Shown: one piece after another, positions 15,423 to 21,969 of the stretch
Numbering within the stretch: position 1 is the stretch's first letter
Layout: every line of letters begins with the position of its first letter
Assembly: GCA_963746845.1 (NCBI GenBank)
Contig: CAVVCZ010000001.1
Location: forward strand, 288,001 to 352,000
Length of the DNA: 64,000 nucleotides
Reading direction: 5' to 3'
Origin: an uncultured Chloroflexia bacterium
GTDB taxonomy: Bacteria > Chloroflexota > Limnocylindria > Limnocylindrales > CSP1-4
Notes under the pieces: model-generated
The model's database searches: none
Told to the model about the DNA's origin: nothing
Seen by the model: the letters and a program-made list of their open reading frames with translations, nothing else
Position numbers and translations under genes: made by a program

Positions 15423-15884
15423 TCAGCCCTCGCCGGCTCGCCAGGAGGTGTAGATCGGCGGCCAGTCGTCGGCGGTCGGACGGCGGCCAAGGAGCGCGTG
15501 CTCGATGTCGAGCTCGAGGAGCCGATAGCCGTCGCCGTGAGCGTCGAAGGCCCAGGCCGCGTGCGCGTGCTCGCGGAGCGTTGGGTCTGTGACGTCGCGA
15601 GACCGCCCGCGGACGGCGAACTCGTCGGGCGCCGCCGGGTCGACGTGGGTGTGGAGGGCAAAGCGCGGGTCGACGGCCAGGTCCCGGGCCTTCGCGGAGC
15701 GGGCCTGGATGAAGGTCAGCAAGCGACCGTCCACGATCTCGGCGTAGACCGGGTTGATCCGCGGCGGCTGTCCGTCCCGGATGGTTGCCAGGAGGCCCTC
15801 GCCGATCCCGGATCGGGTCAGCAGGCGGCGGCCGGTCGCCGCCATGTCCGGGTTCGCGGTCTCCAGGTCGTGCCAGGTGGCCAT
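15423..15884 (-). CDS. Pyridoxamine 5'-phosphate oxidase family protein
   Basis: LATIRDGQPPRINPV and SAKARDLAVDPRFALH motifs; GGAGG RBS. Confidence 0.78.
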   Translation of the reverse strand: MATWHDLETANPDMAATGRRLLTRSGIGEGLLATIRDGQPPRINPVYAEIVDGRLLTFIQARSAKARDLAVDPRFALHTHVDPAAPDEFAVRGRSRDVTDPTLREHAHAAWAFDAHGDGYRLLELDIEHALLGRRPTADDWPPIYTSWRAGEG

Positions 15885-16049: not shown

Positions 16050-16104
16050 GGTCCGGTGCTGATGCCATGGTCGCTTGCAACCGGTCCTCTGGTAAGGTCC
16101 GGTT
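16050..16104. promoter_or_regulatory. Candidate MocR operator in the divergent promoter
   Basis: GGTCC at 16050, 16083 and 16096; imperfect inverted repeat AACCGGTCCT-N6-AGGTCCGGTT. Confidence 0.45.
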
Positions 16105-16106
16105 CG

Positions 16107-18017
16107 ATGACGAGAACGAAGACCAGTTCGGCACTGGAGCTCCTGCTCCAGCTCGACCGCGCCGGCCCCGATCCCCTCCATCGCCAGGTGGAGCGGGCGA
16201 TCCGTGGCGCCATCCGCGACGGGCGTCTCGAGGCCGGCACGGCCCTGCCGTCCAGCCGAGCGCTCGCGTTGCAGCTGATGGTCTCCCGCGGCATCGTCGT
16301 GGAGGCCTATGAGCAGCTCGTTGCGGAGGGATACGTCGTCAGCCGGCCCGGTGGATCCACCCGGGTCGCGCGCTCCGCGGCCGTGGCGGAACCGTCCCGC
16401 ATCCAGCTGGAGCCGGCGTCGTACGCCTGCGACTTCCGTCCGGGACGGCCCGAGGTCCGCGAGTTCCCGCGCACCGCCTGGCTTCGTGCGCTGCGCCGCG
16501 TTCTCGCCACCTCCCCGAGCGAACGGCTGACGTATGGGGCCGGTCACGGCATGCCGGAGCTCCGAACGGCGCTCGCCGGGTACCTCAACCGGGTCCGTGG
16601 CACGGCCGCAGATCCGGCCGACGTCATCGTCTGCACCGGGTTCGCCCAGGGCCTCTGGCTCGTCGCGCGGGCGCTCGCCGCAACCGGCGCGCGGGTCGTG
16701 GCCGTCGAGGACCCATCGGACGCGGAGTACCGGCGGACGATCGAGGCGAGCGGTCTTCGATGGGTCGCGATCCCCGTCGACGACGGCGGGATGCGCGTCG
16801 ACGCGCTGGCCGCCACCGACGCGGATGCGGTCGTGGTGACGGCCGTCCATCAGTACCCGACCGGCGCGGTGCTCGCGCCCGACCGGCGCACCGCGCTCGT
16901 CGACTGGGCGGAGCGGCGGGCCGCGACGATCATCGAGGACGACTACGACGCGGAGTTCCGCTACGACCGCGAGCCGATCGGGGCGATCCAGGGCCTGAGC
17001 CCCGGCCGGGTCGTCTACGCCGGCTCGGCGAGCAAGATCCTGGCCCCGGGCCTCCGGCTCGGGTGGCTCGTCGCCCCGCCGTCGCTGGTCGAGCCGATCG
17101 CCGCCGCGAAGGTGGCCGCGGACATGGGCTCCGCGGCGCTCGACCAGCTCGCGTTCGCCGACATGCTGGAGCACGGCGAGCTCGACCATCACCTGCGGAA
17201 GATGCGGCCGATCTACCGCCGGCGACGGGACACGCTCCTCGCGGCGCTCGCGCGGCATCTGCCCGATCTGCGGCCCACCGGGGCGTCGGCCGGGCTCCAC
17301 GTCCTCGCCTGGCTGCCTCCGGACCTCCGGATCGACGAAGTCACGATCCTCGCCGCCGCCGACCGGGAGGGGATCGCGCTGGCCGGGCTCGCGTCCCGCC
17401 GGGTGGCGCCGGGCCCGGCCGGCCTGGTCTTCGGGTACGGGGCGATCGACGACGCAGCGATCGACGACGGCGTCCGCTCCCTGGCGGGGGTGATCGCCCG
17501 GCTGAGGACGGACCCCGATCCGGACCGACCGATCGTCGCCGTCTACGGCACCCTGCGACGGGGCGAGCGGAACCACGCCGCTGATCGCGAGTGCCGAGTC
17601 GCTCGGGCCGGCCACGACCGCAGGCCGCTTGTGGGGCCTCCGCTCGAGCGCGGAACGGTCCTACGGCTATCCGGCGCTCGTCCACGACGCGGACGGACGC
17701 GTCGCCGTGGAGCTCTACCGGTTGCGGGATCATGCCCACCTCGCTCAGCTCGACGCGCTCGAGGCGTACGACCCGGACGACGAGCCGGGCTCCGAGTACC
17801 TGCGCCGACGGGTGGCCGTGGCCGACGGACCGGTTCCATCCGCCTGGGCGTACCGCCTGGCCGGGTCGATCCCTCCGTCCGCCGAGGCGATCCCCGACGG
17901 CGACTGGACCCGTCACGACCGCGACCGATGAGTTCCCGGCGCGAGCGTTGTCTCGATGGGTGGCGCCCGGAGCAATTGCTCCCGGCGCCTCCGCTGTCCC
18001 GCTCGGCGCGCGGTTGA
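16107..18017 (+). CDS. MocR/GabR family regulator (GntR wHTH plus PLP aminotransferase domain); read as given it runs into the start of a GGCT domain and then a nonsense tail
   Basis: LPSSRALA, VVEAYEQLVAEGY, HQYPTG, IIEDDYDAEFRY, SASKILAPGLRLGW. Confidence 0.85.
   Translation: MTRTKTSSALELLLQLDRAGPDPLHRQVERAIRGAIRDGRLEAGTALPSSRALALQLMVSRGIVVEAYEQLVAEGYVVSRPGGSTRVARSAAVAEPSRIQLEPASYACDFRPGRPEVREFPRTAWLRALRRVLATSPSERLTYGAGHGMPELRTALAGYLNRVRGTAADPADVIVCTGFAQGLWLVARALAATGARVVAVEDPSDAEYRRTIEASGLRWVAIPVDDGGMRVDALAATDADAVVVTAVHQYPTGAVLAPDRRTALVDWAERRAATIIEDDYDAEFRYDREPIGAIQGLSPGRVVYAGSASKILAPGLRLGWLVAPPSLVEPIAAAKVAADMGSAALDQLAFADMLEHGELDHHLRKMRPIYRRRRDTLLAALARHLPDLRPTGASAGLHVLAWLPPDLRIDEVTILAAADREGIALAGLASRRVAPGPAGLVFGYGAIDDAAIDDGVRSLAGVIARLRTDPDPDRPIVAVYGTLRRGERNHAADRECRVARAGHDRRPLVGPPLERGTVLRLSGARPRRGRTRRRGALPVAGSCPPRSARRARGVRPGRRAGLRVPAPTGGRGRRTGSIRLGVPPGRVDPSVRRGDPRRRLDPSRPRPMSSRRERCLDGWRPEQLLPAPPLSRSARG
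17521..17931 (+). pseudogene. Gamma-glutamylcyclotransferase (AIG2-like) domain split by a 1-nt frameshift near 17577
   Basis: VAVYGTLRRGERNH in the MocR frame continues in the +1 frame as PLIASAESLG...YPALV...VELYRL...LDALEAY...EYLRRRV...AWAY...IPDGDW*. Confidence 0.75.
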
Positions 18018-18199
18018 CCGCCGCGCGACCGCGGAGCAAGATGCGATCCGGCGCCGTCCCGCGCCCGACCTCCATCCCGGCGCTCACGCCGCCGGCCCGG
18101 GAGGTAGAGGTGGCTCTGCCATCGGGATCGTGATCGTCGTCGCCCTTCGGAGGGGCATCGGGAGCGTGGGTCCCGGGCCTGCCGCCGCAAGGAGCTGAC
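18014..18199 (+). promoter_or_regulatory. Sigma70-like promoter and ~150-nt structured 5' leader
   Basis: TTGACC-N17-CAAGAT at 18014-18042; stem ACCTCC...GGAGGT (18068-18105) enclosing GGCG-CTCA-CGCC; second hairpin near 18142-18157; AAGGAG RBS. Confidence 0.5.
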
Positions 18200-18937
18200 A
18201 TGACCACCCAGAAGGCCCTCAAGCGCCGCGTCCGGACGCGCATGTCGAAGACCGGCGAGGCGTACGCCGCCGCGCGCCGCCAGGTCCTGGCCCGGGCCCC
18301 GGAGCCGGAGCCGCCCGCCGAGGAGGCCGCCCCGTCGCCCGCCGAGGCGGCCCGAACCGGGACGACCCGGACCTCGTCTGACGAGGCCGTTCTCGCCCGG
18401 ACGGGTCGGCGACGAGCCGAGTGGTTCGCGCTGCTCGACGCCTGGGGTGCCGCCGATCGATCCCACCGCGACATCGCCCGTTGGCTCGCGACCGAGCACG
18501 AGGTCGATGGCTGGTGGGCGCAGGAGGTGACGGTCGACTACGAGCGGGCCATCGGCCGGCGACAGGTCGGCGAGCACCTCGACGGCTTCTCGATCACCGT
18601 CTCGCGGACGATCGGCGTCCCCGTCGAGCGGCTGTTCGACGCCTTCGTCGAGGCGGACCTTCGGGCGCGCTGGCTGCCGGACGTCGAGCTGACCGTCCGG
18701 ACGGCGACACCCCACCGGACCGCACGATTCGACGTGGGCGGCGGGCCGACCCGGCTCGCGATCGGCTTCACCGCCAAGGGCCCCGACCGCAGCACCGTGG
18801 CCATGGAGCACGCACGCATCCCCGACGCGGACGCGGCCGAGCGCTGGAAGGCGAGCTGGCGCGACCGGTTCGCCGACCTGAAGGGAGCCCTCGAGGGCGC
18901 GGACGTCGCGACCGCCGGGCGCGGGCCGGCGGGTTGA
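18200..18937 (+). CDS. Hypothetical protein: basic N-terminal helix, DUF4287-like middle, SRPBCC/START-like C-terminus
   Basis: MTTQKALKRRVRTRMSKTGEAYAAAR; RTGR..EWFALLDAWGA..H..IARWLATEHEVDGWWAQ; SRTIGVPVERLFDAF...RARWLP. Confidence 0.75.
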   Translation: MTTQKALKRRVRTRMSKTGEAYAAARRQVLARAPEPEPPAEEAAPSPAEAARTGTTRTSSDEAVLARTGRRRAEWFALLDAWGAADRSHRDIARWLATEHEVDGWWAQEVTVDYERAIGRRQVGEHLDGFSITVSRTIGVPVERLFDAFVEADLRARWLPDVELTVRTATPHRTARFDVGGGPTRLAIGFTAKGPDRSTVAMEHARIPDADAAERWKASWRDRFADLKGALEGADVATAGRGPAG

Positions 18938-19743
18938 GCAGCTCGAGGGCCGGGCGGGGCCTCGCGACCTCGTCCGACGGGATCCCGATCGTGTATTCGA
19001 TCGGCGGAGCGGGCGCCCCGGCCCTCGTCTTCGTCCACGGCTGGTCGTGCGACCGGTCGTACTGGAGGGAGCAGGTTCCGGCGTTCTCGGGCGATCACCT
19101 CGTGGTGACGATCGACCTTGCCGGGCACGGGGAGTCGGGCTCGGGCCGCGTGTCGTGGACGATGCCAGCATTCGGTGACGACGTCGTCGCGGTGATCGAA
19201 GCGCTCGATCTCGATCGGGTCGTCCTCATCGGCCACTCGATGGGCGGCGACGTCATCGTCGAGGCCGCGCTTCGCCTCCGCGACAGGGTCGCGGGTGTCG
19301 TCTGGGTCGATACCTATCGGTCGCTGGGCCTGCCGTCCGACGAGGCCGAGGACGCGGCGTTCGTCGCCTCGTTCGACGACGACTTCCCGGCGGCGGTCCG
19401 ATCCCTCGTCCGCGACGACCTGTTCCGTCCGACCGCCGATCCGGAGCTCGTCGAATGGGTCGCCTCCGACATGGCGGCCGAGCCGGCGGAGATCGGCCGC
19501 GACGCGATGCGTCACTCGCTCGCCAACGAGGGCCCCATGATCGCGGCGCTGCCGCGGCTCCGGACGCCGGTCGTCGCGATCAACCCGGACGATCCGCCGT
19601 CCGACGTCGAGTCCCTGGCCCGCCTCGGCGTCCGAACGATGGCGACCACCGGGCTCGGCCACTTCCCGATGCTCGAGGACCCAGCCCAGTTCAATCGCCT
19701 GCTTCGGGAGGTGCTCGCCGGCTTGGGCCGGCCGGTCTGCTGA
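18934..19743 (+). CDS. Alpha/beta hydrolase
   Basis: FVHGWSCD, DLAGHGES, GHSMGG nucleophile elbow, GHFPMLEDP; TTG start overlaps the upstream stop. Confidence 0.88.
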   Translation: MSSSRAGRGLATSSDGIPIVYSIGGAGAPALVFVHGWSCDRSYWREQVPAFSGDHLVVTIDLAGHGESGSGRVSWTMPAFGDDVVAVIEALDLDRVVLIGHSMGGDVIVEAALRLRDRVAGVVWVDTYRSLGLPSDEAEDAAFVASFDDDFPAAVRSLVRDDLFRPTADPELVEWVASDMAAEPAEIGRDAMRHSLANEGPMIAALPRLRTPVVAINPDDPPSDVESLARLGVRTMATTGLGHFPMLEDPAQFNRLLREVLAGLGRPVC

Positions 19744-19758
19744 GCCGGCGGCCCGCCC

Positions 19759-21969
19759 TCAGGTTCCTGCCGCCGGTGCCGACGCCGGCCCGTCGACGCT
19801 CGCGGGCTGAACCGGGCGGACCAACGGTGCGGCCGCCGAACCGGCTCCGACCGCAGCAGCCGGTGGCTGTTCCGCATCGAACAGGTGGAGCACCGTCCGC
19901 CATGTCTTCGCGACGATCCCGAGGACCGGGATGATCATCACCATGCCGACGATGCCGGCGATCGCGCCGCCCGCGGGGATCGCCAGCAGCACGACGGCGG
20001 GGTGGATGCTGACCGTCTTGCCGTAGACGAGCGGGGTCACGATGTTGCCCTGGACGATATTGAAGACGATCGTGAAGATCCCCATCAGGACGATGTCCGT
20101 CGTCGATCCGACCGCCACCGCGACGAGGAAGCCGAGCAACGTCCCGATCGCCCCGCCGATGTACGGGATGAACCCGAGGATGAAGCTCAGCACGCCGATC
20201 GGGAACGCGAGGGGCAGGCCGAGGATGAACATCGTCAGCCACTGCATGACCCCGCCCGAGAGTGACACGATCGCCGTCCCGACCATGGAGCTGTAGAGCG
20301 TCGACGCCGACTGCGTCCCGACGTCGTCGACCCGATCACGGCGGTCGAGCGGAACGACGCGCAGGAATGTCGCCCACCATGCCGCGCCGTCGCGGAGGAA
20401 GTAGAACGTCAGCAGGAGCGAGATCGTCAGGGCGATCACGAGCCCGGCCGTGTTCGCGACGATCACGGCCAGGTTCGAGGCCAGCCCGCCGACGAGCGCA
20501 TGGACGAGAGCTGCCGGGGTGGTGCCGAGGCTGAGGCGACCGGCGCCGTCTGCCGCCGTGCTCTCGATCTCTGGCAGGGACGCGACCATCGTCAGGATCG
20601 TGACGACCAGCACGAGGACCACGACCGCCACGCTGGCGATCGTCACGAGCGCGGGTGCGGCGTTCGCCCCCAGGCCGCGTTGACGGGCGACGCGCACGAG
20701 CGGGCGGAGGACCACCGCGAAGATGAGCGCGAGGATCAGGGGCAGGCTGAAGAGTGGCTGAAGGATGAGAGCAATCACGACCGCGAGGAGCCCAAGGACC
20801 ACCAGTGCCCGCCAGCTGAACTGGCCCATCCGATCGAGCCAGACCGGCACGAGGGCGTTGGTGGGCGCCGCTTGCGTTCGCGTGCCGAGGACCTCGACGA
20901 TCGCGGGCGCGAACGCCTGCAGCGCGGTCAGGACCGGGACGGCGGCGAACAGTCCGACGAACCCGAACAGGGCGCCTGCGGCAGGGATCGCGATGAGGGC
21001 GAGGCCCGGGTTGACCCGCGTTCCTGCGCCGTAGACGCGAGGTGCGAGGAACTGCCGCTCAAGGATGTTCGTGACGCCGACGAGCGCGAGGAAGGCGCCG
21101 GCGGCAAGGAACCCCTGCGTGCCGACCGTGATGAGGGTGATCACCGTCGCGCTGAACAGTCCCCCGAGGTACGGAACGAACGCGGCGATGAAGACCACGA
21201 CCGCCAGCGGACCTGCGAACGGCACGCCGAGGATCGTCAGGAACACGGCGACCGAGGCCGCATCGGCGACCGCCAACGCGGACGTGCCGCGGAGGTATCC
21301 GCTCAGCTCGTCGAGTGCGACGGTTGCTCGTGCCGTCAGGGCCCGGGCGCGCCAGTCGTCGATGTTGCTGGTGGTCGCCTCCCAGCCCCGGTCGCCATCG
21401 GACAACAGATAGAAGGTCAGGAATCCGCCGAGGATCATGATCGTGACGAAGCTCGCGATCGGGGCGACCAGCTCGGCAATGTTGCTGGCGAGCCAGGTCT
21501 GGAAGTTGTCAGCGATGGCGTTCACGAGATTGGTCAGCCCCGTCGGCGCCCCGAGCTCTGACAGCTTCGCCGACAGGGCAGCCAGCCCTTCCTTGTTGCG
21601 CTGGAGGATGTCGACGACGGCCGGGATGAAGGCGACGACGATCGCCGTCAGGGCGAGAAGCACGAGGCCGACCGCGAGGAAGCTGGCGGCCGCCGCGGCC
21701 CGGCCCCTCGGCCAGCCACGCTCGGTCCGGAGACGGATCACGACCGGGTAGACGAGGGCGGCGACCAGCAGACCGACGAGGATCGCACCGGTCACGGTCG
21801 ACAGGAAGAGCGCGAACCAGCCGATCACCAGGACCAGCGCGAGCGTCACGAGGACCCGCCAGCCGATCGCGGCGAGACGGTCAAGCCAGCTCGGGACGAT
21901 GCCGGATCCCGTCGGCGTTTCGCCCGGATCGGTTTCCGTGGCCGTGATACCTGTCGGGTCGACCGTCAT
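19759..21969 (-). CDS. AI-2E family transporter with two tandem AI-2E domains
   Basis: Two halves starting VPSWLDRLAAIGWR and VPVWLDRMGQFSWR; LTFYLLSDG vs LTFYFLRDG; FVPYLGG vs FIPYIGG. Confidence 0.85.
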   Translation of the reverse strand: MTVDPTGITATETDPGETPTGSGIVPSWLDRLAAIGWRVLVTLALVLVIGWFALFLSTVTGAILVGLLVAALVYPVVIRLRTERGWPRGRAAAAASFLAVGLVLLALTAIVVAFIPAVVDILQRNKEGLAALSAKLSELGAPTGLTNLVNAIADNFQTWLASNIAELVAPIASFVTIMILGGFLTFYLLSDGDRGWEATTSNIDDWRARALTARATVALDELSGYLRGTSALAVADAASVAVFLTILGVPFAGPLAVVVFIAAFVPYLGGLFSATVITLITVGTQGFLAAGAFLALVGVTNILERQFLAPRVYGAGTRVNPGLALIAIPAAGALFGFVGLFAAVPVLTALQAFAPAIVEVLGTRTQAAPTNALVPVWLDRMGQFSWRALVVLGLLAVVIALILQPLFSLPLILALIFAVVLRPLVRVARQRGLGANAAPALVTIASVAVVVLVLVVTILTMVASLPEIESTAADGAGRLSLGTTPAALVHALVGGLASNLAVIVANTAGLVIALTISLLLTFYFLRDGAAWWATFLRVVPLDRRDRVDDVGTQSASTLYSSMVGTAIVSLSGGVMQWLTMFILGLPLAFPIGVLSFILGFIPYIGGAIGTLLGFLVAVAVGSTTDIVLMGIFTIVFNIVQGNIVTPLVYGKTVSIHPAVVLLAIPAGGAIAGIVGMVMIIPVLGIVAKTWRTVLHLFDAEQPPAAAVGAGSAAAPLVRPVQPASVDGPASAPAAGT

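Follow-up and report, generated by a model that had tools for sequence, protein, structure and literature searches.

A conserved pseudoknotted leader RNA accompanied by a basic N-terminal peptide module in front of unrelated bacterial proteins

The leader RNA at the locus and its conservation

The window analysed here is a high-GC stretch of 64,000 nucleotides (nt) from an uncultured Chloroflexia bacterium (contig CAVVCZ010000001.1, positions 288,001 to 352,000), whose genome comprises 3.56 Mb in 12 contigs. Between a coding region that stops at 17931 and the ATG at 18200 of a gene for a 245-amino-acid (aa) protein, the window contains a leader RNA that recurs, together with the basic peptide that opens the protein, in front of unrelated proteins of several phyla. 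The features of this leader and of the gene behind it are the following.

18014..18019, plus strand: predicted -35-like hexamer TTGACC, followed by a 17-nt spacer to the -10-like hexamer
18037..18042, plus strand: predicted -10-like hexamer CAAGAT, with a transcription start expected near 18047-18050
18050..18199, plus strand: conserved pseudoknotted leader RNA, predicted to occupy the whole 5' untranslated region (UTR); covariance-model match 18048-18205, 110.4 bits
18050..18065, plus strand: P1 hairpin, GGCG (18050-18053) with CGCC (18062-18065), its loop carrying UCCC
18057..18060, plus strand: 5' side of tertiary pairing PK1, the UCCC of the P1 loop, which pairs with GGGA 18124-18127
18069..18104, plus strand: helix P2 (18069-18073 with 18100-18104, CCUCC/GGAGG), enclosing P2a
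18077-18082 with 18090-18095, plus strand: helix P2a, CCGGCG/CGCCGG, closing a 7-nt loop (18083-18089)
18083..18089, plus strand: 5' side of tertiary pairing PK2, the P2a loop CUCACGC, which kisses the P5 loop 18164-18170
18109..18123, plus strand: P3 hairpin, GGUGGC/GCCAUC, preceded by a conserved junction (family consensus CAAA)
18124..18127, plus strand: 3' side of PK1, GGGA, in the segment after P3
18128..18158, plus strand: variable region, with a CCCUU (18143-18147) resembling an anti-Shine-Dalgarno (antiSD) sequence and with the 5' strand of a helix enclosing P5
18159..18175, plus strand: P5 hairpin, CGGGA/UCCCG, whose 7-nt loop GCGUGGG (18164-18170) is the 3' side of PK2
18190..18194, plus strand: Shine-Dalgarno (SD) motif AGGAG, 5 nt before the ATG
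18200..18937, plus strand: gene for the 245-aa protein (N-terminal module, linker, DUF4287-like region, SRPBCC/AHSA1 domain)
18200..18292, plus strand: basic helical hairpin, residues 1-31, MTTQKALKRRVRTRMSKTGEAYAAARRQVLA, modelled with AlphaFold2 (AF2)
18305..18364, plus strand: Pro/Glu/Ala-rich linker, residues 36-55, with an AF2 local confidence score (pLDDT) below 50 and a length and sequence that vary in homologs
18386..18508, plus strand: DUF4287-like helical region, residues 63-103
18584..18916, plus strand: SRPBCC/AHSA1 (Aha1-like) domain, residues ~129-239

The 245-aa protein has 1029 relatives of similar length, and 341 species-genome stretches encoding a DUF4287-SRPBCC relative span Chloroflexota, Actinomycetota, Gemmatimonadota and Acidobacteriota. 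The intergenic region of the window was compared with the 300 nt upstream of 79 relative genes. Its positions ~118-268, that is 18049-18199 in the window, match the relatives at the same offset from the start codon, with blastn identities of 70-87%. With nhmmer, the 78 upstream regions other than the window's own yielded 59 matches at E ≤ 10, of which 37 had E values below 0.001. Because non-coding sequence is kept in this way between phyla, the leader appears to be a functional element. Translation of an upstream open reading frame (ORF) was considered and rejected, as no frame is open throughout the family (49-58 of 102 open, depending on the frame).

Alignments of 36 and 41 leaders were made, the latter with MAFFT. 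In the 41-sequence alignment, the proportion of paired cells is 83.3%; shuffling lowers it to 74.0% and sliding the partners to 35-51%. A covariance model, R1, containing the five nested helices and neither PK1 nor PK2, was then used to align 100 leaders. In this alignment 95.5% of the cells pair and changes on both sides are seen in 29 of the 36 pairs, PK1 and PK2 included; none of 500 shuffles attains any of the observed pairing measures. Since PK1 and PK2 lie outside the model, the alignment does not favour their pairing. In the leader's own genome, the model matches the leader of the window and nothing else.

All elements contribute to this result. P1 is paired in 99.5% of the cells, with both-side changes in three of its four pairs, and PK1 in 95.9%, again with three pairs out of four. 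P2 (98.1%, 5/5 pairs changed on both sides) encloses P2a (95.6%), all six pairs of which covary. P3 pairs in 94.3% of the cells (both-side changes in 4/6 pairs); at one of its positions G-U is the commonest pair (75 of 99 leaders), which fixes the strand. In P5, 89.7% of the cells are paired and all four pairs counted covary (18160-18163 with 18171-18174, the outer pair 18159-18175 being left aside). PK2 is paired in 94.8% of the cells and changes on both sides in four of seven pairs. The P2a loop CUCACGC matches a P5 loop GCGUGAG by perfect complementarity; in the window, where the P5 loop reads GCGUGGG, the duplex energy is -9.6 kcal/mol. Elsewhere the two loops vary in a compensatory manner, as CCCAC/GUGGG, as CCCCAG/CUGGGG, as CCCCGAC/GUCGGGG in Gemmatimonadota and as CCUGCGC/GCGCAGG in a copy linked to a WD40 protein (L107). 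By comparison, the region 18128-18158 differs in both length and sequence among leaders.

An initial annotation of this DNA had drawn the leader as an outer stem ACCTCC../GGAGG around a GGCG-CTCA-CGCC hairpin. The outer stem is real and corresponds to P2; the inner hairpin was placed in the wrong register, the comparative data backing P2a instead. The purine-rich stretch noted after it, AGAGGTGG, can be recognised, and it is made up of the junction and the 5' strand of P3. A further hairpin, GCCCTTCGGAGGGGC, falls within the variable region, and this hairpin is not itself conserved.

It should be noted that the folding energy of the window's own leader carries no such signal. As a single sequence, it is no more stable than its shuffles (z 0.17), which fold as well, and the whole intergenic region gives z values of -1.47 on the plus and -1.44 on the minus strand. 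The case for structure therefore rests on comparison. The single-sequence result is what one would expect of chance stems in GC-rich intergenic DNA. This explanation is ruled out by conservation across phyla together with the 29 compensatory pairs out of 36, and we give it practically no weight.

No described family accounts for the leader. Rfam 15 gave no match over it at E ≤ 10 (window positions 17000-20000), and none over the leaders of seven diverse loci at E ≤ 1, where only a transfer-messenger RNA (tmRNA) and a transfer RNA (tRNA) were found elsewhere in the loci. The initial annotation had suggested both this search and the building of a covariance model from the regions upstream of motif-bearing genes, and a conserved structure was indeed found there. 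Like a riboswitch class, the leader has a conserved structured fold of aptamer type supported by covariation. On comparative sequence evidence, it is a conserved pseudoknotted RNA with five helices and two tertiary pairings.

The transcript probably begins at the 5' end of this RNA. The TTGACC and CAAGAT hexamers with their 17-nt spacer, already pointed out in the initial annotation, are present at 18014-18042, and the ATG lies 158 nt downstream of CAAGAT. A simple scan of 17500-19900 for sigma-70 promoters and terminators returned no site of either kind, the CAAGAT site being missed because it matches at only three of six positions. In the family, a TANNNT hexamer stands 6-10 nt before the first P1 base in 81 of 99 homologous leaders and is almost absent elsewhere in the 60 nt upstream; the CAAGAT of the window is 7 nt before the corresponding base, G18050. 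Words of the type TTG[AC]N gather 35-40 nt before P1 in 28 of the 99 members. From the fixed distance of the -10-like hexamer, the transcript is predicted to start at the RNA's 5' end, about 150 nt before the ATG, so that the RNA would fill the whole 5' UTR. Among 20 sequencing runs listed for the region, all with shares of at most 0.21, none was an RNA run containing it, a result that bears on expression in neither direction. A transcription start close to the ATG, which would have spoken against a regulatory leader, is thus disfavoured by the conserved position of the hexamer.

The N-terminal peptide and its co-occurrence with the leader RNA

The layout proposed early on for the protein, with a discrete module, a Pro/Glu linker and then DUF4287-like and SRPBCC regions, was confirmed. 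Its N-terminal Arg/Lys-rich module is predicted by AF2 to form a separate helical hairpin, with a helix over residues 3-18, a TGE turn and a second helix over residues 22-31 (block-mean pLDDT 87-94). The orthologs all open with MTxxKxxKRxVRxRMxKTGExYxxAR. Across the aligned peptides M1, K8, R12, R14, M15, T18, G19, Y22 and A25 are invariant, K5 and R26 are nearly so, and L/F7, V11, M15, Y22 and A25 would form a hydrophobic mini-core. At the codons of invariant residues, positions 1 and 2 are fixed and the third position is free (entropy 1.0-1.6 bits for R12, R14, T18, G19, A25 and R26). Selection therefore acts on the peptide and not on the RNA, and conservation of the first codons at the RNA level was excluded on this ground. 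With predicted helices that carry K8, R12 and R14, the module shares the short, basic and helical character of arginine-rich-motif peptides. A homodimer prediction for the 35-residue module scored 0.00, which speaks neither for nor against dimerisation.

A 35-column profile of the peptide was searched among 1.84 billion representatives of clusters at 50% identity. It matched 4080 clusters at E ≤ 0.001, 815 of them with E ≤ 1e-10, and the match nearly always begins at residue 1; the others look like starts called too far upstream and read through the RNA. Known domains do not cover the module. There is no Pfam or NCBIfam match to it, a PDB profile search yielded only 2oka (E 1.3 over 12 residues), and structural look-alikes of residues 1-35 in the ESM Atlas gave no usable match. 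Fused forms longer than 429 aa were sought with residues 1-40 among 5.8 billion proteins; none of 60 candidates reached E ≤ 0.01, the query being too short for such a search.

In the remainder of the protein, DUF4287 and AHSA1/Polyketide_cyc2 appear as weak Pfam matches, while residues 1-40 stay blank. PF14117 (DUF4287) scored 26.4 bits with hmmscan, against a cut-off of 27, and 28.8 bits in a six-frame search of the genome; many homologs carry a precomputed match to it. PF08327 (AHSA1) scored 21 bits, below its cut-off of 22.1, and the predicted structure displays the helix-grip fold. With Foldseek, it matched Aha1/AHSA1 structures such as 2m89 (E 7e-6, template-modelling (TM) score 0.67 on the target), with 61 chains at E ≤ 0.001, and a PDB profile search matched 2k5g (E 1.6e-4).

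The first genome search showed that the peptide alone, of all parts of the protein, is present on 450-aa BtrH_N+DUF4872 proteins of related genomes. The regions upstream of these genes carry the same RNA, with compensatory changes. The RNA model was run over the window's own genome, 43 genomes of the genus, five other genomes and a sample of 151 genomes of the phylum. The RNA is present in 13 of the 43 genus genomes, in up to three copies each, in all five of the other genomes (9 strong matches) and, under strict filters, in 5 of the 151 genomes of the phylum sample. Every complete match of at least 55 bits (30/30: 18 in the genus, 9 and 3) is followed within ~10 nt by an ORF whose first codons encode the peptide motif; two other strong matches are cut by contig ends. 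Three weak matches (27.6-33.3 bits) lack the motif and a fourth (27.9) is the antisense of a strong match; these weak matches are taken to be noise. Conversely, 12 of the 43 genus genomes contain a total of 18 sites matching the peptide profile, and at all 18 an RNA match lies directly upstream. All 100 sources searched have the RNA, each of them having been fetched through a motif-bearing gene or an RNA match. All four DUF4872 genes of the five other genomes coincide with RNA matches.

Genes lacking the peptide were also inspected. Five DUF4287 genes of this kind have no RNA even with filters off, the best score being 13.5 bits for a 19-nt piece. One of the five, a close paralog within the DUF4287-SRPBCC family (L132; G209:C2, ~453205), has a different, non-basic N-terminus and no leader RNA; its genome contains two complete units.

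Behind the RNA and the peptide, the protein body can be DUF4287+SRPBCC, either of two kinds of BtrH_N+DUF4872, or a WD40 propeller. Pfam assigned DUF4287 to 12 of 54 longer peptide representatives, BtrH_N to 6, DUF4872 to 5 and AHSA1 to 3; PG_binding_1, GerE, Ala_racemase_N and Abhydrolase_1 were each seen once. No family was assigned to about half of the representatives, and several of the 54 are metagenome calls with evident frame shifts. The tie between leader and module that the initial annotation had surmised from one locus appears, as far as sequences can tell, at 30 of 30 and 18 of 18 sites, across at least three unrelated protein bodies and several phyla.

The same annotation went further, proposing a ligand-sensing SRPBCC domain that tunes, by way of the module, expression of its own gene and of the alpha/beta hydrolase gene downstream. 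SRPBCC domains often bind hydrophobic ligands, and a TTG start of the hydrolase can overlap the stop codon of the SRPBCC gene in the window. However, the same unit serves BtrH_N/DUF4872 and WD40 proteins devoid of any SRPBCC domain, and the hydrolase gene was not found downstream in the other 88 of the 89 loci searched. The hydrolase was accordingly rejected as a conserved partner, a tuning role of the SRPBCC domain is not supported, and the scheme as a whole is very improbable.

A second explanation is that the leader acts as a riboswitch which responds to a small molecule or an ion, and that the hairpin has a separate job, such as targeting, association with ribosomes or nucleic acids, or signalling degradation; adjacency and a shared programme would then account for the pairing of the two. 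The RNA does look like an aptamer, since it combines several helices with two tertiary pairings, has invariant nucleotides at the junction and carries the SD at the 3' end, and one to three copies per genome before different genes recall a small regulon. ZTP/pfl, preQ1-II and SAM-II are pseudoknotted translational riboswitches with an SD that can be occluded, and the leader resembles them in its aptamer-like fold, its long-range pairings and its position directly upstream of the SD. In contrast to these riboswitches, it has no match in Rfam, and the genes downstream share the peptide and no common pathway, so that the metabolic theme of a riboswitch class was not found. The regulated proteins have only the peptide in common, and the DUF4287-SRPBCC paralog that lacks the peptide also lacks the RNA. 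Moreover, two independent elements should sometimes part, and no separation was seen at the 30 and 18 sites. We therefore regard a riboswitch as unlikely.

Initiation region and possible mode of action

At its 3' end the leader runs into the SD and start codon. Of 100 leaders, 76 could be parsed, and in these a CCYUU-type stretch of the variable region shows complementarity to the SD region (mean z -1.15). In minimum free energy (MFE) folds of 102 3' domains, the region -15 to -5 is paired at 68%, against 55% when the upstream part is shuffled; the statistics of both comparisons are inflated by the relatedness of the sequences. The consensus-constrained fold of the window pairs the SD with the variable region. 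The columns of the MAFFT alignment for the SD pairing and for the helix around P5 are poorly aligned (43-62% paired). Occlusion of the SD by the leader fold is likely.

It can be proposed that the peptide binds its own leader and thereby controls translation. This reading is favoured because a basic helical hairpin, of a kind that binds RNA, is what the genes have in common, because RNA and peptide were together at every site examined and because the RNA ends at the SD; we give it roughly even prospects of being correct. The peptide, either nascent on the mRNA or within the finished protein, would bind the folded leader, and binding would stabilise the fold that pairs the SD region. Each motif-bearing protein would then limit its own translation, and probably also that of the other motif genes in the cell; the C-terminal domains would be cargo, with no part in the control. 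The effect would most simply be a negative feedback. A more specific version, which we hold tentatively, pictures a portable cassette of promoter, leader and 31 codons, whose nascent hairpin captures the kissing-loop fold and shuts the ribosome-binding site. Any protein fused behind such a cassette would gain a cis-acting, dose-limiting feedback. It is possible, at a similarly cautious level, that recombination has joined this cassette to many unrelated genes of Actinomycetota, Chloroflexota, Gemmatimonadota and Acidobacteriota.

Several points weigh against the binding and control proposed here. Binding is deduced from co-occurrence, and the signal for SD pairing is modest. The MFE fold of the window departs from the consensus (-78.0 vs -74.4 kcal/mol, with pseudoknots uncounted). 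The loci were found through the protein or the RNA model, so that diverged orphans of either could be missed, and the phylum scan was run with strict filters. Co-occurrence could also partly reflect adjacency, a 5' cassette of 250 nt moving as one piece. Finally, a partial leader copy (L047 1979-2107, P1-P3, 76.7 bits) lies ~900 nt upstream of a complete copy and precedes a 46-aa ORF that lacks the motif; it may stem from an insertion that split or duplicated the leader.

Two further explanations keep the RNA or the peptide functional in another way. In the first, RNA and peptide do bind each other, in a non-regulatory role as scaffold, chaperone or address label that keeps the protein with its own mRNA. 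Strict co-occurrence fits this, as does a protein in which a disordered linker connects an N-terminal helix module to cargo domains that can be exchanged. Microcompartment encapsulation peptides, single amphipathic helices that bind shell proteins, similarly stand before a flexible linker and interchangeable cargo; they have no linked RNA. Control of initiation better explains that the RNA always ends at the SD and start codon and that the SD region tends to pair. No genes for a compartment or partner structure turned up nearby, in neighbourhoods that were not surveyed systematically. We attach a rather low probability to such a scaffold.

In the second, the leader is read by another factor acting in trans (a protein, a small RNA, temperature or the ribosome), and the peptide binds some other nucleic acid, DNA or ribosomal RNA (rRNA). 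A basic helical hairpin could indeed bind many nucleic acids. This view leaves unexplained the one-to-one linkage of RNA and peptide across phyla and protein bodies. Mimicry of rRNA by the leader was also looked for, and the best local alignment to an 8.1-kb stretch of the own genome, anchored on the 16S gene and expected to contain the rRNA operon, scored 31, against 27.0 ± 3.6 for 100 shuffles, hence no significant likeness. The probability that we assign to this explanation is low. This best local match, 17/18 bases in the most conserved part of the leader (GCGCTCACGCCGCCGG…), is found on contig C4, near 1250.3 kb, and is not above shuffles. By our estimate it lies beyond the rRNA genes, the 23S gene not having been located.

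Genomic surroundings, known systems and significance

The conserved unit ends with the peptide. In the window, its gene is followed by a neighbour that lies outside the conserved unit:

18934..19743, plus strand: alpha/beta hydrolase gene (Pfam Abhydrolase_6, E 4e-22)

The candidate TTG start of this gene overlaps the TGA stop of the SRPBCC gene (TTGA, 18934-18937), which suggests translational coupling of the hydrolase in this genome only.

On the 5' side of the leader, a MocR-like gene (16100-17931, plus strand) encodes a GntR helix-turn-helix domain and a class I/II aminotransferase domain. Its frame enters the start of a gamma-glutamyl cyclotransferase (GGACT) domain (…VAVYGTLRRGERNH), and the remainder of GGACT is found in a different frame, terminating at 17931. 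The split over two frames places a frame change near 17570-17600; the sequence may contain an error here, a fusion may have broken, or two genes may overlap. The MocR-like regulator is immediately preceded by an ORF of the pyridoxamine 5'-phosphate oxidase family (PNPOx-like; 15423-15884, minus strand), and the two look like a typical regulator-target pair. A near-perfect palindrome of 28 nt, GGCGCCCGGAGCAATTGCTCCCGGCGCC, at 17962-17989, stands 30 nt past the upstream stop and outside the conserved RNA. It has no T run and could be a terminator-like hairpin or a protein-binding site. In other genomes, a BtrH-type unit has a tmRNA gene (L004 1-368) ~1 kb upstream, and the WD40-type unit is preceded by a tRNA gene (L107 211-283). 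This adjacency may be a coincidence or a hint of integration hot spots.

Protein control of the own leader is known from ribosomal proteins. In the S15, L20, L1 and S4 operon leaders, a ribosomal-protein product binds a structured, often pseudoknotted, 5' leader at the SD. The layout is the same here, where the leader would be bound by the product of its own gene. In the ribosomal proteins, however, RNA is bound by a surface that serves the protein's main function, and the leader imitates rRNA, whereas the present module is detachable, has about 30 residues, is fused to unrelated enzymes and to a beta-propeller, and goes with a leader without likeness to rRNA.

Binding of RNA by short basic peptides is known from phage N and from HIV Tat and Rev. 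In lambda N-boxB, HIV Tat-TAR and Rev-RRE, arginine-rich peptides bind small hairpins, with antitermination or export as the outcome. These systems likewise associate a short basic helical N-terminal peptide with a specific structured RNA; unlike them, the present RNA has 150 nt and several helices and is part of the peptide's own mRNA, and the peptide is a two-helix hairpin. The Rop/Rom protein of ColE1, a helical hairpin that works as a dimer, acts in trans on two RNAs by binding their 7-bp loop-loop kissing complex. Here also a helical hairpin stands beside an RNA with a 7-bp loop-loop kiss; the PDB profile search returned only 2oka.

In the titles and abstracts of the literature consulted, neither a detachable peptide-RNA pair of this kind nor this RNA or this peptide was found described, and the strings KTGERY, KTGESY and KTGEAY do not occur among the literature matches listed. 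The same search gave nothing linking DUF4287 with a riboswitch. The RNA family and the peptide domain are probably undescribed, though the RNA may already be listed without a name in a motif catalogue.

Whatever the mechanism, an RNA family absent from Rfam 15 goes together with a peptide domain absent from Pfam and NCBIfam, and both are widespread, as judged from the 4080 peptide clusters and the 341 stretches with a DUF4287-SRPBCC relative. Carriers exist among cultured organisms, namely Nocardiopsis flavescens (L078) and Micromonospora species. A compact orthogonal RNA-peptide pair could serve as a part for synthetic biology. If the peptide does bind the leader, RNA and peptide would make up a module that evolution has plugged into unrelated proteins as a regulator, in contrast to the feedback of ribosomal proteins, where RNA binding is built into the protein itself.

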